Shown: in pieces, positions 1,448 to 54,867 of the stretch
Layout: each line of letters opens with the position of its first letter
Numbering within the stretch: the stretch's first letter is position 1
Virus record (IMG/VR): IMGVR_UViG_3300032070_000730
Reading direction: 5' to 3' (one strand)
DNA: 64,000 bases
Source: a virus
Taxonomy: Duplodnaviria; Heunggongvirae; Uroviricota; Caudoviricetes
Position numbers and translations under genes: made by a program
The notes under the pieces: model-generated
Told to the model about the DNA's origin: nothing
Seen by the model: the letters and a program-made list of their open reading frames with translations, nothing else
Databases searched by the model: none

Positions 1448-1723
1448 AGTGTTCCATCGGAAATGAAGGATTTTTGTATAAAAATTTGATAGGTCAATTT
1501 GTTTAGTTCAGATTTCGGTGGTCTAATTTTTTATACAATTTTGGCATATTTTTGACCAAATTTTCTCATTTTTGGGAAAAAATCTCCCCGAAAACCAAAC
1601 TGAAAATGACTGAACTACCATAGTTCACTTAACTCACTCATTCTTAAAATCCGTTTTAAAATCCTTTTATATATATTAATAATTGTGCGTATGTATGTAT
1701 TATAAAACACAAGAAGTGGTATA

Positions 1724-10256: not shown

Positions 10257-10586
10257 CTATAATTCTTCTTTAACAAACCTATAACTACATTCTTTTGGCA
10301 ATTTATCTGCATCATCGACTTGTGGGAACTGCATGCAAAAAAGTGGCTGTCCTTTGCCATGAATCCTGCATAGTTTTGTTTGCGGGTCAAAGGCAGAACA
10401 AACCAAAGGAAACCTTAAAATCGTCTTCCCGTTTTTAACATCGACTTTGACATTATGAAGCCTGTAATATTTTAAATGGTCTCTACTAATGACTTTTTCC
10501 ATTGTCAGAGTGAACCACTGACAACACAAACCACAATGATTGCATTCTCCAGTTCTTTTCAAGGATTTCATAGTTTTACCTCGCAT
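10257..10586 (-). CDS. YkgJ-family (CxxCxxCC) putative Zn/Fe-chelating protein
   Basis: ECNHCGLCCQWF matches the CxxCxxCC signature. Confidence 0.45.
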   Translation of the reverse strand: MRGKTMKSLKRTGECNHCGLCCQWFTLTMEKVISRDHLKYYRLHNVKVDVKNGKTILRFPLVCSAFDPQTKLCRIHGKGQPLFCMQFPQVDDADKLPKECSYRFVKEEL

Positions 10587-10861
10587 TTATGTTTAGCATT
10601 CTCAATTGCACCTTCAAGTTTGTCTGTGATTCCTTTATCGAGTTGTCTGACACCAAAAATCTTTAGAAGTTTATTAGCCATTTTAATTTTTCCCTTCAGA
10701 ATTTTCAACGAAGCAATATCATTTTGTTCTTGCATAAAATCAAACAGAACGGATTCGGTTATACAAATCATTATCAATGACATTTCTTTTGAAGATAATT
10801 TTACCTTCCAATATCTCATAGGAATCCTTTTTCCGTCTATCATTTCATACGCTTTGCTCAT
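10568..10861 (-). CDS. hypothetical protein
   Basis: 97-aa ORF; start context identical to that of gene 12570..12866. Confidence 0.3.
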   Translation of the reverse strand: MSKAYEMIDGKRIPMRYWKVKLSSKEMSLIMICITESVLFDFMQEQNDIASLKILKGKIKMANKLLKIFGVRQLDKGITDKLEGAIENAKHKCEVKL

Positions 10862-11003
10862 AGAATTCCTTTAAATGTTAAACATTTAAAAGTTATTTTT
10901 CAACTTAATGGTCAAGGAGTCTCCTTCCGAAAGGTGGGAGAGGAATTGACCTATAATTATTTGTATAGAAAAGTATTTATATAAGTATAACCTATAAACA
11001 AAT

Positions 11004-11310: not shown

Positions 11311-12534
11311 ATGAGAAAAGTCATAAAATTACAAAGTTTAGAATTGACAAACAAAAAGAAGGAAGAATTAGAATCAGCAAGAATTGAAGCCAAAAGAATC
11401 ATTGAAAAATATATTTTGCAGATTCTTGATAAATGTGAAAATAATTCAGAATTGCAACAAAAAATATATCATAAGATAAGGAAAGATTCTTTTCTTCCAA
11501 GCCAAGTCTTGTTGAATTTAATTAGGTCTTCATTCCACTTAAAACAAAAACCAAAAGATAAAAGGACAATAGAAAGGATAACACTCGATTACAACATCCC
11601 AAGAGCATCCAAACTTTTCACTTTACCTAATGGAACTTTATGTTTTGCAATTACTATAAAACCAAGACATAGGATAGTTGTTCCAATAGAAATGAATGGG
11701 TCTATTGAAAGATTTAGAAAACACATCAAAAATGGTTGGATTCTAAAACAAGTTTCACTTACAAATGATAATCAAGTTCTATTGAATCTCGAAAAGAAAA
11801 AAGACCCAAAAAATTATAAAAACCATTTGGGAATAGATGTGAACTCAAATAACATATCATTGACAATCCTCGCACCAAAAGGAAAAATACTAAAACAATT
11901 ATATCTTGGTAAAAACCTCTACAAAAAGAAAGCAAAAATATTAAAGAGGTGGTCAAAATTACAGAGTTATGCAGACAAAGGAGACCCAAAGGCAAGAGAA
12001 AAGTTGAGAAAATTAAATCATAAAGTTAGTAACATGACTAAAAATGCAGTTGGTGAATTGTCTAAAGAAATACACAATATCGCAGAAGAATATGAATCGA
12101 TGATTGTCATGGAGAGATTGACAAAATTCCCTACCAACAAAGGCAAGAAGGCAAATAGAAAAATCAGTCTAATACCTTTTATGTTATTGCGACAGAGGGT
12201 CATAGTTAGAAGTGTTGATACAGGAGTTCCTCTTGGTTATGTTCATCCTTATCATACGAGTAAATGGTGTCCGAGATGTGGTTCGGTGAACCCACCTCAT
12301 GATAAAAAGAATTATGCCATTTACCGATGTAGTGAATGTGGATTGGAATGCAATAGCGATAGAAAAGCAAGTCTCACTATTGCTCTTAAAAAGTTTGTAG
12401 GGCGAGACCAGAAATGGTTTCAGTATCCTACAAAAAGAGTGTCAGTAAATGCTCTCTTTTGGGGAAATGATGATAAATATAGTAAAGGAACAGAAAATCC
12501 TATATATTTATCAGACCCAAAGGTTGTTCTGTGA
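11311..12534 (+). CDS. tnpB: TnpB (OrfB) RuvC-like RNA-guided endonuclease
   Basis: 407 aa; RuvC-I GIDVNSNN, RuvC-II VMERLT, zinc finger CPRCG...CSECG, RuvC-III ECNSDRKASLTIALK. Confidence 0.75.
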   Translation: MRKVIKLQSLELTNKKKEELESARIEAKRIIEKYILQILDKCENNSELQQKIYHKIRKDSFLPSQVLLNLIRSSFHLKQKPKDKRTIERITLDYNIPRASKLFTLPNGTLCFAITIKPRHRIVVPIEMNGSIERFRKHIKNGWILKQVSLTNDNQVLLNLEKKKDPKNYKNHLGIDVNSNNISLTILAPKGKILKQLYLGKNLYKKKAKILKRWSKLQSYADKGDPKAREKLRKLNHKVSNMTKNAVGELSKEIHNIAEEYESMIVMERLTKFPTNKGKKANRKISLIPFMLLRQRVIVRSVDTGVPLGYVHPYHTSKWCPRCGSVNPPHDKKNYAIYRCSECGLECNSDRKASLTIALKKFVGRDQKWFQYPTKRVSVNALFWGNDDKYSKGTENPIYLSDPKVVL

Positions 12535-14475: not shown

Positions 14476-17400
14476 ATGCCAGCAGAACTTCTTCCAGTCG
14501 ATGAGTTTGGGACTTTTCTTCGTGATTACTACAGCCTGAACAAGCCGAGACAAAATTTTTGTTGGGACATGAATGAAGAAATACAGACAGCATTTTTACG
14601 GGGAACAAAAAGAATCACTGTCGATTTCAGAGCGATGGAACAATTTGATGAGAAAAATGATACTAACCTTGTCAAGAGTATATTGTCATTGAGTGGTAAT
14701 GAATTAGAGGCATTTATAAAAAAATTAGAGGAAGAACTGAATAATATAGACAGAGTTATGATATTAAGGGAAGGAGAAGAAAAAGAAAATTTAAAAATTG
14801 GTCTAAAAAACCTTCCGATGACCTTGAGAATCAGCGACATACTTGCAGAGAAGCATCAGGGAAAATTGATACAGGTTGAAGGAATAATCCAGAATATAGG
14901 GATACCATTCAGATTCGCAAGAAAAAAAGTCTTTATATGCGACAGATGCACTTACGAATTAAGAAAAATATTTGACATCAATGAGAGAAAGATTCCAGAA
15001 AAGATGTGGTGTCCTTCATGCAGTGCTGAAAGAACTTTTACAGAAAACAAAAGTCAGGAAATCGTTCTCATCACGCAGTTGTTAACACTCGCTGAAGGTG
15101 TTGCCATGTCGAGTTCTATCCCGATTTCTTTAATGGTAGTTCTGTTCGAGGATTTGATTGATAACCCAGACCCAGACAGACGAAAGTTCATCGCTGGAGC
15201 AAAATTAAGAGTCGCAGGGATGTTAAAAGAGATGAAGACCAATTCTCCCGTAAAAAAATTATATCTTGAAGTCCTTCACTGGGATGTAGAAGCAGAAGAC
15301 ATAAAATTCGCTGATTCCGATATTGAGGAATTCAAAAAAATGTCTACAGACAGTGGGTTGATTGATAAATTAATCGCAAGTTTCTCACCCAGCGTGTATG
15401 GATACGAGGATGTAAAACTCGGTATGATACTACAGATAGTTGGCGGAATCACTAAATATTCCGTGAAAGACAAGAAAATGAATCGTGGGACTATCCATAT
15501 ACTGTTAATTGGAGAACCCTCGACCTCGAAATCGACATTATCCTTATTCAATTATAATTATGTCCCGAAGACAAAACTCGCTGTGTGCAGTGAGTTGAGT
15601 TTAGAATATAACGAACCGATTATATTTTCAGAAGATGGTTTAATAAAAATAATGAAAATAGGTGAATTTGTAGAAAACTATTCCAAAAAAAATATAAAAA
15701 TTCCATCTATAAATCCGCACACTTTTAAGAGTGAATGGAAATCTCTAAAAGGGGTTTTTAAACATAAAGATAACAGAGATTTAGTAAAAATACTTCTTGA
15801 AACTGGAAGAAATATAACAATAACACAAGACCATAGCATTTATGTTGCAGATGGGGATGGAATACATACAAAAAAAGGAAATGAAATAGAAAAAGGAGAT
15901 TTTGTAATTATACCAAAAAAAATAGTCGTGCCCCATAAAAAACATAAAAAAGAAATAAATTTGGTCGAGGAACTATTAAAATTGCCGACAGAAAAAATAA
16001 AAGACATCTATCTTCATGGGATTCCAAGAAAAATTCTTAAAAAAATTGGCAGAACATATCAAACTCATCTTGAAAGAGGTTATTTGCCTTTGCTTGAGGC
16101 AAGAAAACTACCAAAAAACATTTTAAGAAAAGCAACAATTTCAACAAAACACATTCCAACATTTATTCCAATTGATGAAAGATTAACGACACTTCTCGGT
16201 TATTATGTTGCCGAAGGATACAATCGTGAAGAAAAAAATCATTATTATAAAATAGAATTTTGTTTTGGAAACAAGGATTCAGAATTGATAAAAAAAACCC
16301 AACAAATTGTAAAGAATCTTTTTAATTTAGAATGCAGAAAACAAAGGGTCTATCAATTGTCAGTCAATGATAAAATCATTACCTATTTTTTCAAGTATAT
16401 CCTTAAAGTAAAACAATATGCAAAAAACAAAGAAATACCAGAAATTATTTTCAATTCACCACTAAAATCACAACTTGCCTTTCTTCAGGCATATATGCAG
16501 GGGGATTATGGTATTTCTGCAAGCAAAAAATTGATTTCAGACATACAATATCTCGCTCTTTTAATGGGAAAAGTCATAACTTCGTATGATACAAAAACAA
16601 AACCTGCTTTAATAAGGGGAAGAAAAATAAATTCGCAAAAAATACATTTTCATATATCACGAGTTCCTTGTCAGGATTTGTTTCAGAAAAAATTAAACGG
16701 ATTGAAAAAAATCAAAAAAATCCCAGATAAACTTTTGCCATTTATATTCGGGAAAACATTTGGATATGAGAATAGAAATATGAGGACTAATTCTAAAAGT
16801 TTGAAAAACAGGGCATTACAAAATGGATTTAATATGACCAAAAAAGAAATGAATTTCTTCAAAAAACTGGAACAATCTGATATTGGCTTTGTTAAAGTTA
16901 GAAAAACAGAAAAAATATTTCATAAAGATAAGTTTGTTTATGATATTTCTGTTGATGATAATGAAAATTTCATTGGGGGGTATGGTGGAATCCTATGTCA
17001 TAACACTGGGGCTGGGCTCGGCGTTGCTATGCTGAAAGACAAAGAAACAGAAAGTTGGTATCTATCTGCTGGAATTCTTCCTTTGAGTCACAAAGGATTG
17101 TGCATTCTTGATGAAATCGATAAAGCAAATCCAGAGGATATAAAATCTTTGGATATTGTCATGAGTTTACAGAAACTTCCTGTCTCAAAGGCAGGAATAA
17201 ACATCACACTTCCTGCTGAAGCGTCTGTCCTCGCTATAGCAAACCCCAAAGGTGCAAGATGGGACGCTTACCGAGACCTAAAAGACCAAGTAAATCTCTC
17301 CGAAGTGACGCTTTCCAGATTTGACTTGAAATTCTGCTTCAAAGACATTCCAAACGAAGAGAAAGACAAAATGATTGCAGAAAGAATCATAGATTCTGAT

Positions 17401-17958
17401 AATGTCGAGACACCTTTCACTTCCGAGTTTCTTGTAAAATATTTAATGTATGCCAAGACCATGAAACCAAAATTAACCGAAGCGACCACGAAAAAACTGA
17501 CAGATTTTTATATGGAGATGAGACAAAAAACCAAAGAGCAATCAGGAATCATGGTCATAACACCGAGACAGTTCGAGGGTATGATTAGAACATCGGAAGC
17601 ATTTGCAAAGTTAAGACTGGCTGAAGAGACAAATGAGTTGGATGCAGATAATTCTATAAAATGTTTCAAGGGGTTTTTGCGTTCATTTGGTTTTGATTAT
17701 GATACAGGTCAACTCGATATTGACAAAGCAGAAGGAAGGACATCTGGTCAGACAAGAAAAGACACGAGAGAAATGACAGAAATATTCGAAGATTTAAGGA
17801 GCATGTTCGGTGAAAGAGTCCCATTGTCAGATTTTACAGAGGCGTGCGAAAAAGAGGGAATACAAAGGGCAGGCGAAAAAATAAAACAAGCCATAAGAGA
17901 AGGATTGTTTTATCAAAAAGTCGGAGAAGAAGAAGATAAATTTATTAGAAAAGTATAA
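14476..17958 (+). CDS. mcm: MCM replicative helicase with inserted intein
   Basis: N-terminal C4 Zn finger CDRC...CPSC; Walker A GEPSTSKS; Walker B CILDEIDK; sensor-1 AIANP; Arg finger SRFDL. Length 1160 aa is explained by an intein in the P-loop region. Confidence 0.85.
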   Translation: MPAELLPVDEFGTFLRDYYSLNKPRQNFCWDMNEEIQTAFLRGTKRITVDFRAMEQFDEKNDTNLVKSILSLSGNELEAFIKKLEEELNNIDRVMILREGEEKENLKIGLKNLPMTLRISDILAEKHQGKLIQVEGIIQNIGIPFRFARKKVFICDRCTYELRKIFDINERKIPEKMWCPSCSAERTFTENKSQEIVLITQLLTLAEGVAMSSSIPISLMVVLFEDLIDNPDPDRRKFIAGAKLRVAGMLKEMKTNSPVKKLYLEVLHWDVEAEDIKFADSDIEEFKKMSTDSGLIDKLIASFSPSVYGYEDVKLGMILQIVGGITKYSVKDKKMNRGTIHILLIGEPSTSKSTLSLFNYNYVPKTKLAVCSELSLEYNEPIIFSEDGLIKIMKIGEFVENYSKKNIKIPSINPHTFKSEWKSLKGVFKHKDNRDLVKILLETGRNITITQDHSIYVADGDGIHTKKGNEIEKGDFVIIPKKIVVPHKKHKKEINLVEELLKLPTEKIKDIYLHGIPRKILKKIGRTYQTHLERGYLPLLEARKLPKNILRKATISTKHIPTFIPIDERLTTLLGYYVAEGYNREEKNHYYKIEFCFGNKDSELIKKTQQIVKNLFNLECRKQRVYQLSVNDKIITYFFKYILKVKQYAKNKEIPEIIFNSPLKSQLAFLQAYMQGDYGISASKKLISDIQYLALLMGKVITSYDTKTKPALIRGRKINSQKIHFHISRVPCQDLFQKKLNGLKKIKKIPDKLLPFIFGKTFGYENRNMRTNSKSLKNRALQNGFNMTKKEMNFFKKLEQSDIGFVKVRKTEKIFHKDKFVYDISVDDNENFIGGYGGILCHNTGAGLGVAMLKDKETESWYLSAGILPLSHKGLCILDEIDKANPEDIKSLDIVMSLQKLPVSKAGINITLPAEASVLAIANPKGARWDAYRDLKDQVNLSEVTLSRFDLKFCFKDIPNEEKDKMIAERIIDSDNVETPFTSEFLVKYLMYAKTMKPKLTEATTKKLTDFYMEMRQKTKEQSGIMVITPRQFEGMIRTSEAFAKLRLAEETNELDADNSIKCFKGFLRSFGFDYDTGQLDIDKAEGRTSGQTRKDTREMTEIFEDLRSMFGERVPLSDFTEACEKEGIQRAGEKIKQAIREGLFYQKVGEEEDKFIRKV
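15586..17004 (+). other. intein (473 aa) with LAGLIDADG homing endonuclease domain inside MCM
   Basis: Begins at the Cys after KTKLAV. LAGLIDADG blocks LLGYYVAEGY and FLQAYMQGDYGIS. Ends ILCHN followed by Thr (+1), then the extein resumes GAGLGVAM. Confidence 0.7.
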
Positions 17959-31535: not shown

Positions 31536-32429
31536 CTATTTAGTTGCTGGTATGCTAACAAGCGGTGTCGTTCCAGTTCCGAGCATATACACTGGCATTT
31601 TTCCGTCCCACTTTTCAACCCATCTCAATTGAACTACATCTGGATTTTCTCTCAATGCCTGTCCCTGAATCCTAATTGATTCTGCTTCTGCTGTCGCAAC
31701 TTTTAATTTTGCGTCTGCTTCACCAACTGCCTGTGCAATTTTTCTTTCAGCCTCTAATTTTTCTTTCTTAACTTCAGTCTCTTTCTGCAACATCTCTTGT
31801 TCTGTTTTTTGCTTGGCTTCCACTGCATTCTTTATCTGTTCTGGTATGGCTACATCCCTTATTAAAACTTCTTCAAGGATAAATCCATCTTTGTCGAATT
31901 TCTCAAAAAGATTATCATATATCCCTTCTTCAAGTTTCTCCCTTCCTGCACCATAAAGTTCTGTGACAGCCATCCCACCCGCAACATCCCTTGTCGCTGA
32001 ACGGACTGAAGGTATCACTGTTCCCCAGACATATTCGGTAGTCAAACCTTTTACTACATCGATTGCCTTCTCTGGTTTCACTTTGTAGAACACTGAAACA
32101 TCTACTATAATTTCAAGACCCTCTTTGCTTGGAACTTGCACTGCTATGTCATCGCAATCATCTACTTCTCGCTTGCATTCTTCATAAGTTCCATACAAGT
32201 TAATTGTGTCTCTTGCAGTTTTTATATGATAGACAGTCTGCAAAACAGGTGTTTTAATATGCCAACCGATTCCCATCGTATCTGGAAGGATTCCCTTGCT
32301 TGCATCATATACAACGCCAACTTCTCCAGCATTTATTATTTCTATAGAATCAAATATCAATATCACTGCAACTATCACTGCGACTATGCTAACACACCAT
32401 ATTAAAATGGTTCTTATAGGTTCTTCCAT
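31536..32429 (-). CDS. SPFH/band-7 (stomatin/prohibitin-like) membrane protein
   Basis: N-terminal TM; SPFH core (VVYDASKG...IIVDVSVFYKV); C-terminal Ala/Glu/Lys coiled coil. Confidence 0.65.
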   Translation of the reverse strand: MEEPIRTILIWCVSIVAVIVAVILIFDSIEIINAGEVGVVYDASKGILPDTMGIGWHIKTPVLQTVYHIKTARDTINLYGTYEECKREVDDCDDIAVQVPSKEGLEIIVDVSVFYKVKPEKAIDVVKGLTTEYVWGTVIPSVRSATRDVAGGMAVTELYGAGREKLEEGIYDNLFEKFDKDGFILEEVLIRDVAIPEQIKNAVEAKQKTEQEMLQKETEVKKEKLEAERKIAQAVGEADAKLKVATAEAESIRIQGQALRENPDVVQLRWVEKWDGKMPVYMLGTGTTPLVSIPATK

Positions 32430-33469
32430 AATATCCCCTCTGTCGCAAAGAGACCACCTATTTCAATAGGTGGATGAATTGCAACCTTGAATTTGTGCGA
32501 TAACCATGAAATTTTAGTTGAAACTTTTCCAATCCTTTTGTTTTCCAAATTTCTTATCCAAACATTATTTTTAGTCCCACCAACTATTTGACCAAATTCA
32601 CATATTGTTCCTTTTCTTATTCCTTTAAAATTTCCTGTTGAATATCTTTCCCTTATCCCATCCTTTGAAAATTGTGTATCATGCAACCTTCTTCTTTTGG
32701 GTCTATAAGTATCGTCAACAACCAAAATATTGTCAGTATGAGTTGGGTTATTAACTATTTCTGAAGCGATTACAAAACTGTCAATACAATGTGAATAAAA
32801 GTGCTCTGCTGATTTGTTTGTTGATTTTTTCAATCCTTTCTTTTCTCTCAAATCTTTTGTTTCAAATCCATTAAATATCAGGTAATTTTCCCTTCCAACT
32901 TCATTTACAAGAAAATCCTTGATTGTTTTTTTCCCTATTTCAACTGTGCTGAAATTCTTTCCCCATCTGTTATCCCTATGGTTGAATTTGACATCTTCAA
33001 TTGCAACTTTGTTGATTGGATAATATTTGAATATTTCCCCCATACATTTCAATCTGCTGTTTACAATGACAAATTGCGAAGGTGCGATAAATCCATCTCT
33101 TTTCCTATTGTCAAATCTGCATTCCCTTCTTCTACAATCCCTAAATCGTCTTGCCCTTCTTAATTGTCTTCTTTCTTTTAATTTCCTGACAATGGTTTTC
33201 TTGTCAGGAAGTTTCCACATGACATTCAGGTTATTCTCCTTTTCAGATACAATCGAGTATCCTTCAAATTTTGTTCCAAAATCACAACCCAAAATAAATT
33301 TAGGCACTTCTTTTCTTGTTTCTATTAACATTTGTATTCCAAACAATCCGAACTTGTTCCAGACTGGCTTTGCTACTTTACCTTTTAGGAGTTTTCTCGC
33401 TTTACTTGGTTTGCATGGTGTCAAAGGGTTTCCACTCTCACTTAACACAAATATTCTATTCGGAGACAT
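32414..33469 (-). CDS. isrB: IsrB-like (IscB lacking HNH) RuvC-type OMEGA nuclease
   Basis: Likely real start MSPNRIFVLSESGNPLTPCKPSKARKLLKGKVAKPV (PLMP domain). RuvC-I ILGCDFGTKFEGYSIV; Arg-rich bridge helix RRQLRRARRFRDCRRRECRFDNRKR; RuvC-II VAIEDVKF; RuvC-III HCIDSFVIAS; no HNH. ORF track extends to 33640 (TTG) through low-complexity sequence that is more likely RNA. Confidence 0.7.
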   Translation of the reverse strand: MSPNRIFVLSESGNPLTPCKPSKARKLLKGKVAKPVWNKFGLFGIQMLIETRKEVPKFILGCDFGTKFEGYSIVSEKENNLNVMWKLPDKKTIVRKLKERRQLRRARRFRDCRRRECRFDNRKRDGFIAPSQFVIVNSRLKCMGEIFKYYPINKVAIEDVKFNHRDNRWGKNFSTVEIGKKTIKDFLVNEVGRENYLIFNGFETKDLREKKGLKKSTNKSAEHFYSHCIDSFVIASEIVNNPTHTDNILVVDDTYRPKRRRLHDTQFSKDGIRERYSTGNFKGIRKGTICEFGQIVGGTKNNVWIRNLENKRIGKVSTKISWLSHKFKVAIHPPIEIGGLFATEGILWKNL

Positions 33470-33760
33470 ACTCCCAACATATTTGTTGTCATACCCACAT
33501 CCAAAATGATTGAAAGGTATAGAGTTATCACTACTGTTTGTAGCGTTTTCTAAACTCATGGAATTCAATGGTTCTTCCGAATAATTCAGGACTTGTGGAG
33601 TATCCTGAAGTTCTTGTAACCCTTCAGTCGTAGTTGCCAATTTTTTTACCTCAACTTTTTGTAGTCAACCCTTGCGTTGTCACCATCATCACAAGCCACC
33701 GTTTTTAAACGGTGGTGGTTGACTAAAATCTCACCGAATAAGAAAGATTAAGGTTTAAAG
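33470..33760 (-). ncRNA. candidate omega-RNA scaffold upstream of isrB
   Basis: Relatively GC-rich. Hairpins CCACCG-UUUAAAAA-CGGUGG and UUCAGGA/UCCUGAA. 7-bp long-range pairing GUCAACC/GGUUGAC. Position 5' of the nuclease gene as in IscB/IsrB loci. Confidence 0.4.
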
Positions 33761-33957
33761 ATTTAAAGATATTTAATTTTTCAGTTCTGCGATTTTACCT
33801 TCATAGAACCTTATTCTGTTTTGAAATTTCCGTAATTTTCTCATATCGTGGGAAGCAAAGAGCGATTTTTTGCTTTTTTCAATCTCTCCGTAATAGAATT
33901 CAAGCAGTTTCCTGACTTCCGCTTTCGTCATAATTTAATCCTGTGTCTTAATGATAT

Positions 33958-34242: not shown

Positions 34243-34403
34243 AAGAAATATTTTATTCTTTCAAAATTTATAGTTTATAATATTTAACTTTAATTTTCAA
34301 ATATTGTTGCAACACACTAAAGAAAAAGGTTTATGTCGATGCATCTGGAAAAGGTTATTTTTCAGTTTTATGTAGAGATAAGTCTGTAGTTTTCAGGTCA
34401 AAA

Positions 34404-34790
34404 ATGTCTGGTTCTGGAAAGGTTAATGACATTGAGTTTGAAGCGATTCAAACAGCAGTGAGAATGTTCAGCAAGAATATAATATTGTATTCTGACAATC
34501 TTCCTGCTATTCATAGAGCAAAGGGAATTTTTAATGGCATGGAAATCCGACATATAATGGGGAAGGACAATCCTGCACATAAGTCGCTATGCGGGTGCGG
34601 GATGCCTAAAAAAATAAAAGAGATAAGGCACGAAGAGATAAAAAAAAGAATCAGAGAAATAAATGAAATCTCATACAAAAAACCAAATTACATGACGGTA
34701 ATGACACCAGAAGGAGAAAGAATCATGAGCCAGTCGAAATTCAAAAAATATGTGAGGTTCATGCAGAATAAATTTTATCACAACAAATAA
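34404..34790 (+). CDS. hypothetical protein
   Basis: 128-aa basic ORF. Confidence 0.3.
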   Translation: MSGSGKVNDIEFEAIQTAVRMFSKNIILYSDNLPAIHRAKGIFNGMEIRHIMGKDNPAHKSLCGCGMPKKIKEIRHEEIKKRIREINEISYKKPNYMTVMTPEGERIMSQSKFKKYVRFMQNKFYHNK

Positions 34791-34934
34791 TTAAAAAAAA
34801 AGAAAAAAATAGGCTATTTACTTCGCAGTGACGCTTCCGCCAACAACTTTAGCAGACAAATAATTAAAAAAAAAAGAAAAAAATAGGCTATTTACTTCGC
34901 AGTGACGCTTCCGCCAACAACTTTAGCAGACAAA
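34788..34934. repeat. tandem direct duplication (2 x ~73 bp)
   Basis: Unit TAATTAAAAAAAAAGAAAAAAATAGGCTATTTACTTCGCAGTGACGCTTCCGCCAACAACTTTAGCAGACAAA occurs twice head-to-tail (one extra A in copy 2). Copy 2 carries the last 14 codons plus terminator T-run of gene 34892..37099. Confidence 0.8.
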
Positions 34935-37099
34935 GAGTTAATTCCTGAAAGTGCTTGAACATAATTGTTCAAAGTCAAACAGGCATATCTCGTGTCTGTT
35001 GCGGAATAACCAGCGACAACGACTACAGTTCTTCCTGCTACGAAAGCATTTGGAATAACAAAGATGTATGCTTCATTTTCTTTCCATCCGCTTCCAGTTC
35101 CGCCTGCACATGTGTATTCCTGACCCAACTTTCCGTTGTCAACAAGTTTCTGAACCATGCTGTTAGCACAAGAGCCACCGATTAAAATCAGATTTGTGTC
35201 GGTGTCTTGATTAACTTCTGTGTCAAGTTTTGAAACAGAGGTCGTTATTGGTTTTGTCTTGTAGTAATATTGCGTTTCATTGCCGATTATTATAGTTCCA
35301 GTCCCTTCAACAATGACTTTTGCTTTAACTTGGTCTGCTGGAATCTTCAACTGAACTTTGTCTGAACTGCCTTCATTATCGGGGTTGGATATGATGACAC
35401 CAAAAGCGGTTCTCAAATCATTATCCTTTGTTCCGATTGTCTTGTTGTTCCATAAAAGTTCATTTGCTTCAGATTGACCATCAAGAGCACCAAGCGAATC
35501 GAATTCGTTGCCACTCTGATGAATCCAAGCAGATGTGTTGTCATTGCTTATCACACCGTCTTGAACTTCAAGATATAGTGTGTTGTTGCTGAAGTTTCCT
35601 GTCAATGACAGAGGAACTTTATTTCCTTTTGTGCTTTTGTAGTTGACATATCCGAACACATTATTGTCGGATGGGTCGTTGTTGATTATAGTTCCTGCGA
35701 ACTTCCACGCACCGTCTTTATTGTAGTAGAAGACGCTTACATTTCCTTGAGTCGCATTCTGCGAGAACAAATAAATCTTTCTTGTCTTCATGTCATCAGT
35801 GAAATTGTTTCCTTTTAAAGACCAAGCAGGAGAATCGTGCCATAGCAAGATTCCATCATCTGCGGGTGCTAAAAATTGGAATACACTTTCTGATGTTCCC
35901 CATGAGAAAGATTGTTCATTCGCTCTGGAAAGGTCAACTGAATTTCTCAATGACAATTCGTATGACGCATAATCTGCATCATCGACGGTCAATTTATCGA
36001 AACAGACAGAAATATATTTCTCTCCTTTCGGAACAGAATAACAATCACCTTCAGTTACTGGATTGTCATCTATGCTGTTCTTGACCATATCGTTCTTGAC
36101 ACCAATCACTGGAATCAAGGTATTCAAATCGTCAATTTCCCAAATCCAATCTGGGTCAGTCTTGCTTTCACCTATGAATGCATCTCCGTCTTTGTAAGTC
36201 TTTTCGATGTCAGAACCAACTAATAGTTGTGCAGAGCCACTTCCATTCTCTTCAGCGAATGAAACCAAGATTTTTATCTTGAGCCCATTGACAGTTTTTG
36301 CTGTCGTTCCAACTATAACCTGTTCTCCATCGACTGAAACTATCGCCCTATCATTGTTTGATACTGCGATAAGTTTCAATATTTTGCCTTCTACCGTCTT
36401 TGTTTCTCCAGTGGAGAGAACAATTTCCTGACCAAGTTGTGCAGTAAAAGATGTCTGGCTGTTGACTTTGGTTATCGTCAATTTGTTTCCAAGTATGAAA
36501 ACTTCTAACGGTTCATCTTGGCTCGCTGTAGTTATGTTTATGTCATCATCGAACACATGGTAATAGGCTATATCGCCTCTATTAATTTCCATGTAGACAT
36601 TTTCTTTGTAGTCATCTTTGTTTCCTGTCAAACTTGTCTGCATGACTGGCGTGTTATTTCCCAGTCTTATCTCTTCATGCATATCATAGGAATCTCCCTG
36701 AAAGTCAATCGATGCATCTTGAAGACCTTTGATTTCATTGTTCGTCAATGTTCTATCAATCAATCCAACACCAGTTATAGGTGAACCCAAAGGAATATCT
36801 TCCGATTGTGCTCCGCTAATCTGTCCTGATATTGGGATGGTAACTTTTTCAGTGTTGTCACCAGCAAGTCTTATCATAACATCGATTGCACCAACAACAT
36901 CTTCTGTCGATGCTCTCTGTCCAACTATGACAAAAGCCTTTAGATTGTTATTTGAATCAAATAGGAATTGTGGATAATTGGATAGATAGTATAGTTGTTG
37001 GTTTGACGGTGTAGTAGTCGCTGTAGTATTCTGCGAAGTTGCAAAGCCTATGAGACATACTATAGATAGTAATGCCATAGCAACTGCAACTAATTTCAT
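34892..37099 (-). CDS. large secreted surface (S-layer-like) protein
   Basis: Signal peptide MKLVAVAMALLSIVCLIGFATS; 735 aa, Thr/Ser/Asn-rich with many N-x-S/T sequons; adjacent glycosylation island. Confidence 0.5.
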   Translation of the reverse strand: MKLVAVAMALLSIVCLIGFATSQNTTATTTPSNQQLYYLSNYPQFLFDSNNNLKAFVIVGQRASTEDVVGAIDVMIRLAGDNTEKVTIPISGQISGAQSEDIPLGSPITGVGLIDRTLTNNEIKGLQDASIDFQGDSYDMHEEIRLGNNTPVMQTSLTGNKDDYKENVYMEINRGDIAYYHVFDDDINITTASQDEPLEVFILGNKLTITKVNSQTSFTAQLGQEIVLSTGETKTVEGKILKLIAVSNNDRAIVSVDGEQVIVGTTAKTVNGLKIKILVSFAEENGSGSAQLLVGSDIEKTYKDGDAFIGESKTDPDWIWEIDDLNTLIPVIGVKNDMVKNSIDDNPVTEGDCYSVPKGEKYISVCFDKLTVDDADYASYELSLRNSVDLSRANEQSFSWGTSESVFQFLAPADDGILLWHDSPAWSLKGNNFTDDMKTRKIYLFSQNATQGNVSVFYYNKDGAWKFAGTIINNDPSDNNVFGYVNYKSTKGNKVPLSLTGNFSNNTLYLEVQDGVISNDNTSAWIHQSGNEFDSLGALDGQSEANELLWNNKTIGTKDNDLRTAFGVIISNPDNEGSSDKVQLKIPADQVKAKVIVEGTGTIIIGNETQYYYKTKPITTSVSKLDTEVNQDTDTNLILIGGSCANSMVQKLVDNGKLGQEYTCAGGTGSGWKENEAYIFVIPNAFVAGRTVVVVAGYSATDTRYACLTLNNYVQALSGINSLSAKVVGGSVTAK

Positions 37100-51308: not shown

Positions 51309-51599
51309 ATGATTAACAAAGAACTTGAAAATTGGAGAGGAAGAATAGAAGACAGCAGAAAGAAAAAGGAAAGGGAATTAAGTTCTTATCTGAAGATAAT
51401 GTATTTTATCGGATTCTTTTCCGTAATTTTAAGTTTGTCTATGATAATATTCGATAATGTTTTTCTGTTTTTGTCAGGTGAATTCGGTGTGATTATAGAC
51501 ATGCTTTATGTGCTTATCTTTATTTTTGGTATATCTGGAATGGCTTATGCCCTTTCGACACAAATTATATTTAAAAGAAAAATACCAGAGAGAGTGTGA
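51309..51599 (+). CDS. membrane protein
   Basis: Two TM helices. Confidence 0.3.
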   Translation: MINKELENWRGRIEDSRKKKERELSSYLKIMYFIGFFSVILSLSMIIFDNVFLFLSGEFGVIIDMLYVLIFIFGISGMAYALSTQIIFKRKIPERV

Positions 51600-51871: not shown

Positions 51872-52731
51872 TGTTCAAAGCAGTAATAAACGATGCTTCA
51901 CATCTTCTCGATATTTTTGCGGTTTCAAATGAAGTTTTCGATGAGATTGTATTAAACCTTGATTCAGAAGGCATAAAAATGATAGCCAATGACAGGGCTG
52001 GAGTCGTCATTTTAAGTTTAAAAATAGAAAAGGGATTGTTCAAAGAATATGCCTGCGATAAAGAAACAAAAATCGCCTTCAACATGCAGGAATTTTATAA
52101 ACTTCTCAAACTGTTCGGCGGAGAAACTACTTTATCACTCGAAGGTGATTATAATCTTGTCCTATCGCAAAAATCACCGTTCAATAAAATATTAAAGTTA
52201 AGGTTGTTCGAGCCAGACGTTAAAAAAGAAGAGAAACTGGAGACATTCCAACTTTATAATTTTAAATTTCCAATAAGAGTAGAACTGAAGACTTCTGCAT
52301 TTGAATCGATAATAAAGGATTGCGGGGAATGCGATAATGTTCTGTTTGATGTTGACACAGAAAGAATAAGATTCTATGGAAAAAGTGGTTTGATGATGAC
52401 TGAATATGATTTCAGGCTTGAGAAAGATAACGACCTTTTACTTCTTATTGAAGCAGAAAAACCTTGCAAGACAATGTTAAATAATGATTATCTTCAACGA
52501 ATCCTCAAAGCCTGTCGTGTATCAGAAAACATGAGAATCGAGATGGAGACAGATTATCCGATAAGATTCAGTTTTGCTGGCGATAATATTCTTATGGTAT
52601 TTTTTGTAGCACCAACAGTTTCTGAAGGTGCTGAAGAACTGGAAGGCAAATTCAATAGCGAACAAAAAGAACAAAAAGAAGAAGCGAGGAAAATCACAAA
52701 GAAGGGAAAGATGACTATAATAGAGGAGTAA
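51871..52731 (+). CDS. pcna: PCNA sliding clamp with ~35-aa K/E-rich C-terminal extension
   Basis: MFKAVINDASHLLDIFAVSNEVFDEIVLNLDSEGIKMIANDRAGVVILSL... has the typical PCNA N-terminal pattern and two-domain length. Confidence 0.8.
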   Translation: MFKAVINDASHLLDIFAVSNEVFDEIVLNLDSEGIKMIANDRAGVVILSLKIEKGLFKEYACDKETKIAFNMQEFYKLLKLFGGETTLSLEGDYNLVLSQKSPFNKILKLRLFEPDVKKEEKLETFQLYNFKFPIRVELKTSAFESIIKDCGECDNVLFDVDTERIRFYGKSGLMMTEYDFRLEKDNDLLLLIEAEKPCKTMLNNDYLQRILKACRVSENMRIEMETDYPIRFSFAGDNILMVFFVAPTVSEGAEELEGKFNSEQKEQKEEARKITKKGKMTIIEE

Positions 52732-53856: not shown

Positions 53857-54867
53857 GTGAAAATAATGTTAGAAGGGAAAATAGTGAATATTAGAAAAAT
53901 GGAACAAATATTAAAGGAATATTTTGAAAATGGAACAGGAACGCCAACCATAGGAATAAAACATGGTATTAATCCAACGACTATACAAAAATGGTTAGGG
54001 GGAAAACACAGAAAAAACGAAGTTAATTTTTTGATGAAAAAAAATAATTGGAGATTAAATAAAAAATTAAGAAAAAAAGTATTTTCTAATGGACATAAAA
54101 TAAGAGGTTTAAATAGACGAAAAGAGATTTTATCAGGTTTTAATAAAGAAATGGCTTATATGTTTGGTGCTATTATTGGAGATGGCTCGGTATCTGAAGA
54201 TGGTATTTCTTTTAATTTATGGGATAATAATTTTGTAAAGGAATGTTTAAAAAATGGAGAAAGGGCTTTCCATATTAAAGGTATGTTTAAAATTTCTTAT
54301 TGGAAGGGGTATAAGACAAAATATTATACATTAAATTTTTATTCGAGAAATTTGAGAGATTTTTTTAGAAAATTTAAAAAATCAACAAAATTTTGGTTAA
54401 TTCCACAACAAATTAAAAATAACACTCAACTAAAGATTAATTTTTTAAAAGGATTTTTTGATGCAGAAGGATGTGTTGTCTTTAGTTTACTAAAATATAA
54501 AAATAAAACATATAAACGATGTTATATTTCTTGTAGTTCCACAAGTTTAGGGGGTCTAAAACAAATTTCCGCTCTTCTCAATAATTTGAAAATATATCAT
54601 GGTTTTTATTCCTATAAAAATAATTATGAATACAGAATAACAATATATAGAGAATCATTAGAAAGATTTAATATTCTGATAGGATTTAGAGTTGAAAAAT
54701 TCAATTTGCGTTTAAATTCTTATTTAAAAGAGGTGATGAATAATGGGAGAACAAAAATATTTAATCCTCGACATCGAAAGGTTAATGAATTAAATTTTAA
54801 TCCGATAAACGACAGGATTAGATGCGAACACATCCCAATTAATATCAATCGGAACAATGAATCTTGA
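53857..54867 (+). CDS. free-standing double-motif LAGLIDADG homing endonuclease with N-terminal HTH
   Basis: MFGAIIGDGSVS and LKGFFDAEGCVVFS LAGLIDADG blocks. Confidence 0.7.
   Translation: MKIMLEGKIVNIRKMEQILKEYFENGTGTPTIGIKHGINPTTIQKWLGGKHRKNEVNFLMKKNNWRLNKKLRKKVFSNGHKIRGLNRRKEILSGFNKEMAYMFGAIIGDGSVSEDGISFNLWDNNFVKECLKNGERAFHIKGMFKISYWKGYKTKYYTLNFYSRNLRDFFRKFKKSTKFWLIPQQIKNNTQLKINFLKGFFDAEGCVVFSLLKYKNKTYKRCYISCSSTSLGGLKQISALLNNLKIYHGFYSYKNNYEYRITIYRESLERFNILIGFRVEKFNLRLNSYLKEVMNNGRTKIFNPRHRKVNELNFNPINDRIRCEHIPININRNNES

Follow-up and report, generated by a model that had tools for sequence, protein, structure and literature searches.

An IsrB gene and its omega-RNA in a probable non-autonomous IS200/IS605-type element of a DPANN-type archaeon

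Does the minus strand of this 64,000-nt stretch of DNA from a virus record (the window) encode an RNA-guided nickase, and what kind of genetic unit carries it? No Cas9-like RNA-guided enzymes smaller than the IsrB nickases are known, and these attract interest as compact scaffolds for editing. The first-pass annotation had placed an HNH-less, IscB-type nuclease of the IsrB subtype at 32414-33760, together with an omega-RNA encoded 5' of the gene; the replicon was taken to be archaeal and to carry a TnpB as well. A comparison of about 90 related loci (phylogenetically linked, so that counts among them overstate independence) delimits a unit of 1,294 bp, 33723-32430 on the minus strand. This unit is very probably a non-autonomous element of the IS200/IS605 type (ISC1-like) from a DPANN-type archaeon, encoding an IsrB nickase and its omega-RNA, and our high confidence extends to the explanation as a whole (element, TAM, mechanism by analogy and ORF overlap together). 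The locus is a divergent new member of an already known type of IsrB/omega-RNA system, and the hosts of the family are low-GC, apparently mesophilic, DPANN-type archaea. The TnpB was confirmed elsewhere in the window, at 11311-12534, while a PHROGs search on ten unassigned window proteins returned nothing useful.

The protein is described by the following features.

32414-33640, minus strand: IsrB ORF, 408 aa, TTG start, with a conserved core at residues 58-386
Residues D120, E215, H284 and D287 of IsrB: RuvC residues; R369 and K372: TI-domain residues
Tails of IsrB: N-terminal 57 aa encoded by the omega-RNA, C-terminal 22 aa by the 3' hairpin

The IscB-type architecture read earlier from the motifs stands. 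All of the motif strings quoted then are present in the translation of the 408-aa ORF, Pfam RRXRR (PF14239) matches residues 63-222 (E=2.4e-35), and a single-sequence phmmer search against the PDB ranks an IsrB, 8dmb_P, first (E=1e-44, residues 56-350). True IscBs appear at about 1e-11, and the top-scoring ones match in two stretches flanking their HNH insert. An alignment with the IsrB family, which the first-pass annotation had proposed as a check, identifies IsrB of Desulfovirgula thermocuniculi (DtIsrB, 8DMB) as the best solved relative: a family profile matches it at E=9.2e-62, with profile positions 57-395 covering nearly the whole protein including the TI domain. Foldseek, queried with an AlphaFold model, also gives 8dmb_P as its top match (E=2.4e-19; about 33% identity). 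This AlphaFold2 model, built from a 25-sequence alignment, has a mean pLDDT of 55, with values below 40 at residues 1-58 and 378-408 (below 30 in the N-terminal extension, which is predicted to be disordered); it retrieves 8DMB and is too poor for TI-domain contacts.

Domain by domain, the correspondence with DtIsrB is close. Residues 58-115 align with its PLMP domain, whose P-L-x-P strand reads PLTP here; an arginine-rich, RRxRR-rich bridge helix (residues 147-168) interrupts the split RuvC; and the four RuvC residues are invariant across 25 homologues and align with identical residues in 8DMB. Between RuvC-II and RuvC-III, Pfam and NCBIfam searches found no HNH family; the linker at this place, FNHRDNRWGKNFSTVEIGK, has the short HNH-like linker as its counterpart in the DtIsrB alignment. 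The NCBIfam model guided_IscB matches over its N-terminal half only (positions 1-162 of 314; 109 bits, cut-off 175), as expected for an HNH-less protein, so the subtype assigned earlier agrees with both profile and structure. The TI domain is seen by the family profile, which aligns through 8DMB chain residue 500 (about IsrB residue 350) and whose KRIG motif holds the equivalent of R323; the C-terminal 78 aa alone gave chance matches only against the PDB. The ORF is thus an IsrB, that is, an HNH-less IscB with PLMP domain, split RuvC, bridge helix and TI domain. By analogy, it would be an RNA-guided, TAM-dependent nickase of the non-target strand, since a protein that lacks the HNH domain is expected to cut one strand instead of both. 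A database search returned 808 homologues at E<=1e-5, the best 120 of the 808 spanning 62-100% identity; in public records the homologues are labelled only 'RRXRR domain-containing protein'.

Upstream of the conserved core lies the second component of the system.

33470-33723, minus strand: omega-RNA scaffold of divergent HEARO type, from the Rfam match, covariation and folding energy

The covariance-model search, also proposed in the first-pass annotation, recovers Rfam HEARO (RF02033) at 33723-33488 on the minus strand over the full model (positions 1-211 of 211), with 72.5 bits and E=1.9e-14 (E about 1e-12 over the whole window), a score below the Rfam gathering score of 83. Among 20 relatives, one passes this cut-off (84.6 bits) and 19 fall below it. 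The match is a statistically secure homologue outside the curated cut-off. Covariation argues for the same structure: RNAalifold on 43 related loci predicts 51 pairs, 43 of them with compensatory (double) changes, and the region folds at -74.9 kcal/mol against -58.6 +/- 4.9 in shuffles (z = -3.4; 0/200 shuffles as stable). The omega-RNA foreseen at the 5' end is therefore borne out. Its upper limit is slightly lower than first drawn: the ORF coordinates 32414-33640 hold, and 33760 overshoots, for among 69 loci there is no conservation upstream of 33723 and an abrupt onset at that position.

These results also bear on whether the protein might be an ordinary RuvC/YqgF-type Holliday-junction resolvase working without an RNA guide, next to an upstream structure that is there by coincidence. 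What resemblance exists is faint (RuvC resolvases far down the fold-search list at E of about 1e-3, and a marginal TIGR00228 ruvC match, E=0.17 over 26 residues), whereas DtIsrB is matched in PLMP domain, bridge helix and TI domain alike, and the HEARO match, with its extensive covariation, travels with the isrB gene in about 60 loci. Profile and covariation results refute the resolvase reading, to which we assign next to no probability.

How the gene and the RNA share their DNA is less simple than first proposed.

33638-33652, minus strand: GAGGT (33652-33648), 7-nt A spacer and TTG start (33640-33638), inside the omega-RNA linker
33467-33469, minus strand: Met58 ATG, aligned with DtIsrB Met1, a possible alternative start

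The first-pass annotation had regarded the roughly 57 upstream codons as spurious and put the start at the Met at 33469. In that case translation would begin only at Met58, the upstream codons would be a gene-caller artefact and the omega-RNA would lie wholly in an untranslated leader. The Met58 ATG is indeed well placed, being conserved at 91-99% per column among related loci and aligned with Met1 of the solved protein; a few database homologues (P0057, P0120) are annotated from its equivalent, the upstream start at this locus is TTG rather than ATG, and the extension is of low complexity with the low pLDDT and predicted disorder given above. Against this, the IsrB-phase frame is open for at least 45 codons upstream in 63/64 relatives, compared with 1/64 and 2/64 for the other two frames, and an untranslated RNA would have no reason to avoid stop codons in a single frame. 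In 58/60 loci the omega-RNA linker holds an ATG in the IsrB frame, even as the length of the extension varies from 54 to 65 codons (a Shine-Dalgarno-like motif precedes it in about half of the 60), indels in the coding part of the RNA alignment are multiples of three, and at this locus GAGGT stands 7 nt before the TTG. With the upstream frame conserved open and an in-frame linker start, the long IsrB ORF is probably real and overlaps the omega-RNA, with TTG at 33640-33638 as the probable start of the long form; translation from Met58 alone we consider unlikely, and the earlier correction of the start probably has to be given up. A long ORF also means that the omega-RNA does not sit within a free 5' UTR, since its 3' part of about 170 nt overlaps the coding region. 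In this HEARO-type RNA, the 3' two-thirds are also coding.

The limits of the element are marked by structures at both ends, which were located by alignment and with a covariance model, R1.

33696-33715, minus strand: first omega-RNA stem-loop, CCACCGTTTAAAAACGGTGG, the probable TnpA-recognised hairpin at the 5' transposon end
32442-32485, minus strand: 3' subterminal two-tier hairpin, GTTGCAA-TTCAT-CCACCTAT-TGAA-ATAGGTGG-TCTCT-TTGCGAC, a transposon-end structure
32430-32441, minus strand: last 12 nt of the element, AGAGGGGATATT, homologous in the relative L007, while sequences after the ATG differ

In a 46-locus alignment of the 3' hairpin, 15/15 pairs covary, 84.7% of cells are paired against 56.5% in shuffles, and the covariation score is 0.654 against 0.199 (0/500 shuffles as high); model R1 scores 53.5 bits here. 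The 5' stem-loop is a partial match to R1, and the similarity of the two hairpins within the same element exceeds all 300 permutations. We considered the 3' hairpin as an intrinsic terminator and rejected this: it has no T-run, it follows tnpA in the relative L055, and solo copies exist. The boundaries agree with where relatives cease to align. For example, L007 (84% nucleotide identity) aligns only over 33724-32420, ending at 33724 on the 5' side, and the near-identical pairs L010/L012, L065/L079 and L074/L078 diverge directly after ATGA. Related copies occupy unrelated flanks in different genomes, with close relatives at 83-90% identity in other contexts, which suggests mobility of the family.

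No Y1 (HUH) TnpA was found in the 64-kb window, so the element is non-autonomous; it is present there as a single copy, and on these two grounds its mobility in this genome can be no more than presumed. One relative, L055, has a Y1 TnpA between isrB and the 3' hairpin: isrB, Y1_Tnp (E=1.6e-42), hairpin and TTTATGA follow in this order, and its hairpin, after tnpA at the element end, is the same as the 3' hairpin here. Searches for an empty site were negative in the material covered, as 6/6 contigs with the 52-aa upstream neighbour also carry the element and the donor-joint 23-mer has no match in IMG/VR; searches for entries identical to the IsrB and SPFH proteins likewise returned no record. 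The precise 3' boundary, before or after the ATG, was therefore placed by comparing paralogous copies. The predicted donor joint is ...TTCGGTGAGATTTTA joined to ATGGAAGAA (exact joint GGTGAGATTTTAATGGAAGAACC; junction ...GATTTTA joined to ATGGAA).

A conserved motif abuts the element on its 3' side only; the 5' flank has none.

32425-32429, minus strand: ATGGA, the inferred TAM/TnpA target abutting the element and also the SPFH start codon
31536-32429, minus strand: SPFH/Band-7 host gene directly downstream (Pfam Band_7 E=4.4e-29)

A logo of 49 loci reads ATG(A/G)AA (ATG 100%, next A 84% or G 16%, then A 78% and A 78%), and from it we infer ATGR as the TAM of this IsrB family. The ATGG form of this locus is the minority, being found in 8/52 loci of a 52-locus alignment as well as in the 16% of the logo. 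The TAM of GstIscB is TTCAT (bioRxiv 10.1101/2023.03.14.532601), the reverse complement of the ATGAA found at the 3' side of the element. That of DtIsrB is NTGA; the wild-type enzyme does not cut at ATGG, its R323 reads the G, and its Q326 reads the A, whereas an R put in place of Q326 accepts A or G (PMC9581776). In the family profile, R323 aligns with R369 and Q326 with K372, the latter being R in most relatives.

Since the TAM contains ATG, family members often lie directly before a host start codon. At 29/49 loci the terminal ATG begins an ORF that is at least 60 codons long (or at least 30 where it runs off the contig), compared with 21% for ATGA sites generally, and the docked ORFs include full-length PCNA, Ku, T2SSF and methyltransferase genes. 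In the family, the TGA within ATGA usually serves as stop codon of the IsrB ORF, which thereby overlaps the host start; here, the SPFH gene overlaps the IsrB ORF by 16 nt, and a Shine-Dalgarno-like GAGGGG lies in AGAGGGGATATT, 6 nt ahead of the host ATG. A limited literature search found no description of placement at host start codons.

The other side of the element would supply the guide and its promoter.

33724-33743, minus strand: probable guide segment, the last ~15-20 nt of the unconserved 5' flank, ...TTATTCGGTGAGATTTTA
33753-33767, minus strand: two TATA-box-like motifs, TTTAAAT/TTTAAAC, read from the sequence itself

Judging from the conservation boundary at 33723, the guide is probably about 15-20 nt long and would form the 5' end of the omega-RNA. 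A Shine-Dalgarno-like GGTGA at 33735-33731 lies inside it, and the segment resembles a 5' UTR that originally belonged to the downstream SPFH gene and has been displaced from it. By eye, such a motif occurs in the 5' flank of this locus and of roughly a third of loci, and as a family-wide rule it was rejected on this count. The TATA-box-like pair, in the 49-nt spacer after the stop (33773) of the upstream gene, is a candidate host promoter from which transcription would begin about 15 nt before the scaffold. Three matches to the guide in the 64-kb window, with two mismatches each, are more than expected; none has ATGR after the match, and they were therefore rejected as targets.

By analogy with DtIsrB and ISGst5 IscB, a TnpA acting in trans would excise the element and insert it beside an ATGA(A) motif. 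Host-side transcription would then yield an RNA whose first ~15-20 nt, formerly the SPFH 5' UTR, serve as guide, with the IsrB ORF beginning at the conserved in-frame linker start and scaffold and coding sequence overlapping by about 170 nt. The IsrB-RNA complex may recognize the empty site by a guide match with the ATGR TAM directly after it, and may nick the non-target strand, which would favour re-copying of the element, while the element would provide its own Shine-Dalgarno-like sequence before the host gene. A further reading, which we put forward tentatively and with somewhat less than even confidence, is that the DPANN IsrB family is a 'start-codon-docking' transposon. That is, the TAM/target ATGA(A) would double as host start codon and first base(s) of codon 2, and the element would be wedged between the promoter/5' UTR and the ATG. 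The host promoter would drive the omega-RNA with the displaced 5' UTR as guide, the IsrB ORF would run from the omega-RNA start through the end hairpin to the TAM's TGA, and the host gene would be re-expressed through the element's Shine-Dalgarno and the stop/start overlap. On this reading, nearly all nucleotides of the 1.3-kb unit would have a dual function.

The same placement could also mean that the unit is a fixed, immobile or domesticated remnant, with IsrB and omega-RNA decaying or co-opted (e.g. for SPFH regulation) and no longer homing. Its single copy with no TnpA in the window, the same insertion in all six contigs carrying the neighbouring gene, the minority ATGG TAM and the location between host promoter and host start codon all fit such a fate. 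Yet the ORF is unbroken, the omega-RNA and the hairpins at either end are intact with good model scores, and relatives at 83-90% identity sit in other contexts. Domesticated, catalytically dead relatives usually lack the RuvC residues, whereas all four are conserved here. We consider a remnant quite improbable and retain the element with a predicted nickase system as the best explanation.

From the comparative anatomy come the limits of the element, the position of the guide, ATGR as a TAM that can be tested, and a candidate for the TnpA partner. If docking and the dual use of RNA and coding sequence hold true, they would make an OMEGA element tolerable in tiny, gene-dense genomes, as the gene it lands on would not be silenced, and would explain the 5' overlap between the nuclease ORF and its guide RNA.

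Among known systems, DtIsrB (Hirano et al. 2022, PMC9581776) is the nearest. The two share the order PLMP, RuvC-I, bridge helix, RuvC-II, short HNH-like linker, RuvC-III, P-lock/WED and TI, identical catalytic residues, the TAM-reading Arg (R323 there, R369 here) and an omega-RNA of some 250-280 nt encoded just upstream, its guide at the 5' end, and the inferred ATG(A/G) fits NTGA. They differ in sequence (about 33% identity), in the archaeal, low-GC, mesophilic setting of the locus here, in an ORF extended by about 57 codons into the omega-RNA and about 22 through the end hairpin, in the K/R for Q326, which fits A or G at TAM position 4, and in omega-RNAs that mostly score below the HEARO gathering score. 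HEARO RF02033 itself is matched over its full-length consensus structure (1-211) with stems backed by compensatory changes, but at 72.5 bits against 83 and with the 3' two-thirds also coding here. The IscBs (OgeuIscB, 7XHT/7UTN, and ISGst5 IscB) likewise have PLMP, RuvC and bridge helix with an omega-RNA upstream of the ORF. In particular, ISGst5 IscB of Geobacillus stearothermophilus (Meers et al. 2023, bioRxiv 10.1101/2023.03.14.532601) belongs to a non-autonomous IS200/IS605 element with Y1 TnpA in trans, its TAM TTCAT, written 5' of the left end, is ATGAA here by reverse complement, and its proposed role is donor-joint cleavage that retains the transposon. Unlike these, the element here has no HNH, an archaeal host and, across its family, frequent exact placement at host start codons. 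Finally, the omega/reRNA of ISDra2 TnpB (Karvelis et al. 2021, PMC8612924) differs in RNA fold and protein family (IscB/IsrB, Cas9-like, here) and overlaps its gene at the 3' rather than the 5' end, but in both systems the same DNA is guide-RNA scaffold and nuclease coding sequence, and the guide is taken from the flank just beyond the transposon end.

The 408-aa open reading frame at 32414-33640 on the minus strand, which begins with a TTG codon, encodes an IsrB (an HNH-less IscB), as the first-pass annotation had proposed. All of the motif strings on which that proposal was built are present: IFVLSESGNPLTPCKPSKARKLLKGKVAKPV, ILGCDFGTKFEGYSIV, an arginine-rich helix, VAIEDVKF and HCIDSFVIAS. 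The Pfam domain RRXRR (PF14239) covers residues 63-222 (E=2.4e-35), and the NCBIfam model guided_IscB is matched under its cut-off and at positions 1-162 of 314 only, a half-length match that is expected because IsrB is missing the HNH half. In a search against all PDB sequences, the top match was 8dmb_P, the IsrB of Desulfovirgula thermocuniculi (DtIsrB; PDB 8DMB), at E=1e-44 over residues 56-350; true IscBs reached about 1e-11, the best-scoring ones in two stretches flanking the HNH insert. A profile of 25 homologues matched 8DMB at E=9.2e-62, profile positions 57-395 taking in nearly the whole of DtIsrB, including the TI domain. Foldseek, run with an AlphaFold2 model that is itself poor (mean pLDDT 55), also placed 8dmb_P first (E=2.4e-19), followed by IscBs and, far lower, RuvC resolvases. 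Residues D120, E215, H284 and D287 do not vary across the family. Given these profile, PDB, structure-search and invariant-residue results, the protein part of the earlier observation and its interpretation (a RuvC nuclease with a PLMP domain and no HNH) stands.

The structured omega-RNA predicted 5' of the gene is likewise borne out by alignment and folding. No Rfam family reaches its gathering score anywhere in the 64-kb window. When matches were ranked by E-value instead, a single strong one emerged: HEARO (RF02033), since identified as the omega-RNA of IscB (PMC13565253), at 33723..33488 (minus strand), spanning model positions 1-211 of 211 with 72.5 bits (gathering score 83 bits; E=1.9e-14 locally, 1.1e-12 for the whole window). 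This stretch folds better than 200/200 shuffles (z=-3.4). We retrieved about 90 related loci and aligned the upstream regions of 69; conservation sets in sharply at 33723 (GTCAAC...), and the flank 5' of it is AT-rich and unconserved. RNAalifold predicted 51 pairs from 43 non-redundant loci, 43 of them with compensatory double changes. The family is a divergent branch of HEARO, since just 1 of 20 relatives passes the gathering score.

The gene start is where we depart from the first-pass annotation, which had chosen the ATG at 33469 (Met58 of the 408-aa frame). The IsrB-phase frame stays free of stops for 45 codons or more 5' of Met58 in 63/64 loci (median 68), compared with 1/64 and 2/64 for the other two frames (medians 5.5 and 25.5). 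An ATG within the A-rich omega-RNA linker is in phase with IsrB in 58 of 60 loci; the resulting extension is 54 to 65 codons long among the 60, with a Shine-Dalgarno-like motif upstream in about half. Indels of the RNA alignment in this region are multiples of three, and the window copy reads GAGGT, seven A's and TTG at the linker start (33652-33638). Our reading of these comparisons is that translation probably starts in the linker, so that about 170 nt would double as omega-RNA scaffold and coding sequence. Met58 aligns with DtIsrB Met1, is conserved at above 90% and could act as an alternative initiation site. The AlphaFold2 model predicts disorder in both the N-terminal extension and a 22-aa C-terminal tail, the latter encoded by a hairpin at the element's 3' end; the apparent amino-acid conservation of the two (e.g. 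HLGSGYN) reflects conserved RNA. DtIsrB has been suggested to repress translation by binding its own leader (Hirano et al., PMC9581776); speculatively, the IsrB described here could do the same.

Several observations delimit a mobile unit. The related locus L007, 84% identical to the window in DNA sequence, aligns over 33724-32420 only, and its flanks are unrelated. At the 3' end, nearly all relatives have a hairpin of two tiers whose internal loops are conserved (AATTCCTCC ... GGTCTCCTTG). Among 46 aligned loci, 15/15 of its pairs covary, 84.7% of its cells are paired (56.5% in shuffles) and its covariation score is 0.654 (0.199 in shuffles; 0/500 equal it). The two end hairpins of the window's element are:

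32485-32442, minus strand: 3' hairpin, defined by covariation in the 46-locus alignment
33715-33696, minus strand: first stem-loop of the omega-RNA, of the same design as the 3' hairpin

Within each element of the family, the similarity of the first stem-loop to the 3' hairpin exceeds all 300 permutations, and such paired 5' and 3' hairpins match the left/right end pattern of IS200/IS605. SL1 of the DtIsrB omega-RNA is not needed for nicking and has a possible role in mobility (Hirano et al., PMC9581776). In the relative L055, isrB is followed in turn by a Y1 TnpA (PF01797, E=1.6e-42), the same 3' hairpin and TTTATGA; this is the autonomous form of the element. The 64-kb window contains one isrB and no TnpA, so its element is non-autonomous. 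Two diverged elements, L026 and L036, share a 24-kb metagenome contig (Ga0315288_10002471) with about 15 kb between them, so a genome can hold more than one member of the family.

Beyond the hairpin, a 6-13-nt spacer leads to a fixed terminal motif, which in 49 loci reads T/T/W/T, ATG (100%), A (84%) or G (16%), A (78%) and A (78%). Pairs of almost identical elements that sit in different surroundings (L010/L012, L065/L079, L074/L078) diverge right after ATGA. The motif agrees with the target-adjoining motifs (TAMs) of GstIscB, the Geobacillus stearothermophilus protein (TTCAT, written 5' of the left end, or ATGAA on the nuclease-sense strand; bioRxiv 10.1101/2023.03.14.532601), and of DtIsrB (NTGA, with R323 reading G and Q326 reading A; PMC9581776). 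The profile alignment pairs R323 with R369 of the window protein and Q326 with K372, which is R in most relatives. The Q326R mutant of DtIsrB tolerates A or G (PMC9581776), and the variable fourth position fits K/R here. From these alignments we infer an ATGR(A) TAM that abuts the element at 32429-32425 (ATGGA); the element would then span 33723-32430, or 1,294 bp.

The SPFH/Band-7 gene at 31536-32429 begins with the ATG of this TAM. Among 49 loci, the terminal ATG starts an ORF that is 60 or more codons long (30 or more where it runs off the contig) in 29, whereas ATGA sites in general do so in 21%. The docked ORFs include full-length PCNA, Ku, a T2SSF-type membrane protein and a methyltransferase, with Pfam domains starting near residue 1. 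The IsrB stop is the TGA of ATGA in 37/49 loci, which makes the end of the IsrB ORF overlap with the host start. The window copy has ATGG instead, and its ORF continues for four more codons, to a TAA at 32416-32414. A Shine-Dalgarno-like GAGGGG lies in the last 12 nt of the element, 6 nt before the ATG. Joined in silico, the flanks read ...TTTAAAT..TTTAAAC..TTCGGTGAGATTTTA|ATGGAAGAA, with TATA-like boxes, a GGTGA Shine-Dalgarno sequence and a start codon. Their natural spacing suggests that the element inserted between the SPFH 5' UTR and its ATG, the UTR now serving as guide. No empty site was found by exact-protein look-ups of the IsrB and SPFH products, among contigs with the upstream neighbour or in a donor-joint search in IMG/VR.

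The guide-like 15-mer TTCGGTGAGATTTTA has three further matches in the window, with two mismatches each (0.33 expected):

1578-1592, minus strand
51483-51497, plus strand
51937-51951, plus strand

They are unlikely guide targets, because ATGR follows none of them.

Further copies of the 3' hairpin also occur. One at 10898-10952 (minus strand; 32 bits, E~1e-4 with R1, our covariance model of the hairpin) has the same AATTCCTC/CTCCTTG loops, is followed by TTGAAA rather than ATGAAA, and lies about 35 nt upstream of an ORF at 10568-10861 (minus strand); it may be a remnant or a PATE-like end. Two relatives carry extra copies on top of the hairpin 3' of isrB (L052, 5393-5452 and 5799-5858; L094, 4150-4208 and 6174-6232), candidates for solo ends, miniature hairpin-only derivatives or other IS ends.

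The window is clearly archaeal. Its genes encode an MCM helicase (14476-17958, plus strand) split by an intein with a LAGLIDADG homing-endonuclease domain, PCNA, a Cdc6-like AAA protein, an XPB-like helicase, an S-layer protein and glycosyltransferases. The TnpB noted earlier is confirmed at 11311-12534 (plus strand; 407 aa, Pfam OrfB_IS605 and Cas12f1-like TNB domains). A free-standing LAGLIDADG ORF lies at 53857-54867 (plus strand); with the intein, it indicates that the replicon bears several kinds of selfish element. The 64 kb hold no tRNA genes, many short unassigned ORFs and several strand/GC-skew switches, and may come from a large extrachromosomal element instead of a chromosome. Named IsrB homologues (5 of the best 120 listed) are labelled Nanoarchaeota archaeon or plain 'archaeon', all annotated only as 'RRXRR domain-containing protein'; related genome contigs bear the titles of Woesearchaeota or Thermoplasmata MAGs, or simply archaeon. 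Six IMG/VR contigs carry IsrB relatives, including one that comes from the window's own sample. A segment of about 0.62 kb (34243-34865), some 0.5 kb upstream of the element, is an insertion/deletion polymorphism: it is present in the window and L089 and missing in L006, L086, L087, L088 and L090; it contains an ORF (34404-34790, plus strand, 128 aa) without a Pfam match and adjoins a tandem repeat (34783-34941, ~74-bp period).

A TnpA acting in trans would move the element next to a TAM, and the IsrB/omega-RNA complex would then nick the vacated site, favouring reinstatement of the element. Three features may be variant: a TAM that overlaps host start codons, an ORF start inside the omega-RNA and a stop codon supplied by the TAM. 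A limited literature search found none of them described for IsrB. In all that sequence can test, the locus agrees with IsrB and with non-autonomous IS200/IS605 elements of the ISC1 type; it lacks just a score at the curated HEARO cut-off and a TnpA. It is a divergent IsrB of an already known kind of system and, as far as can be inferred, its protein and omega-RNA would work like DtIsrB and the IscB of ISGst5 (Meers et al. 2023).
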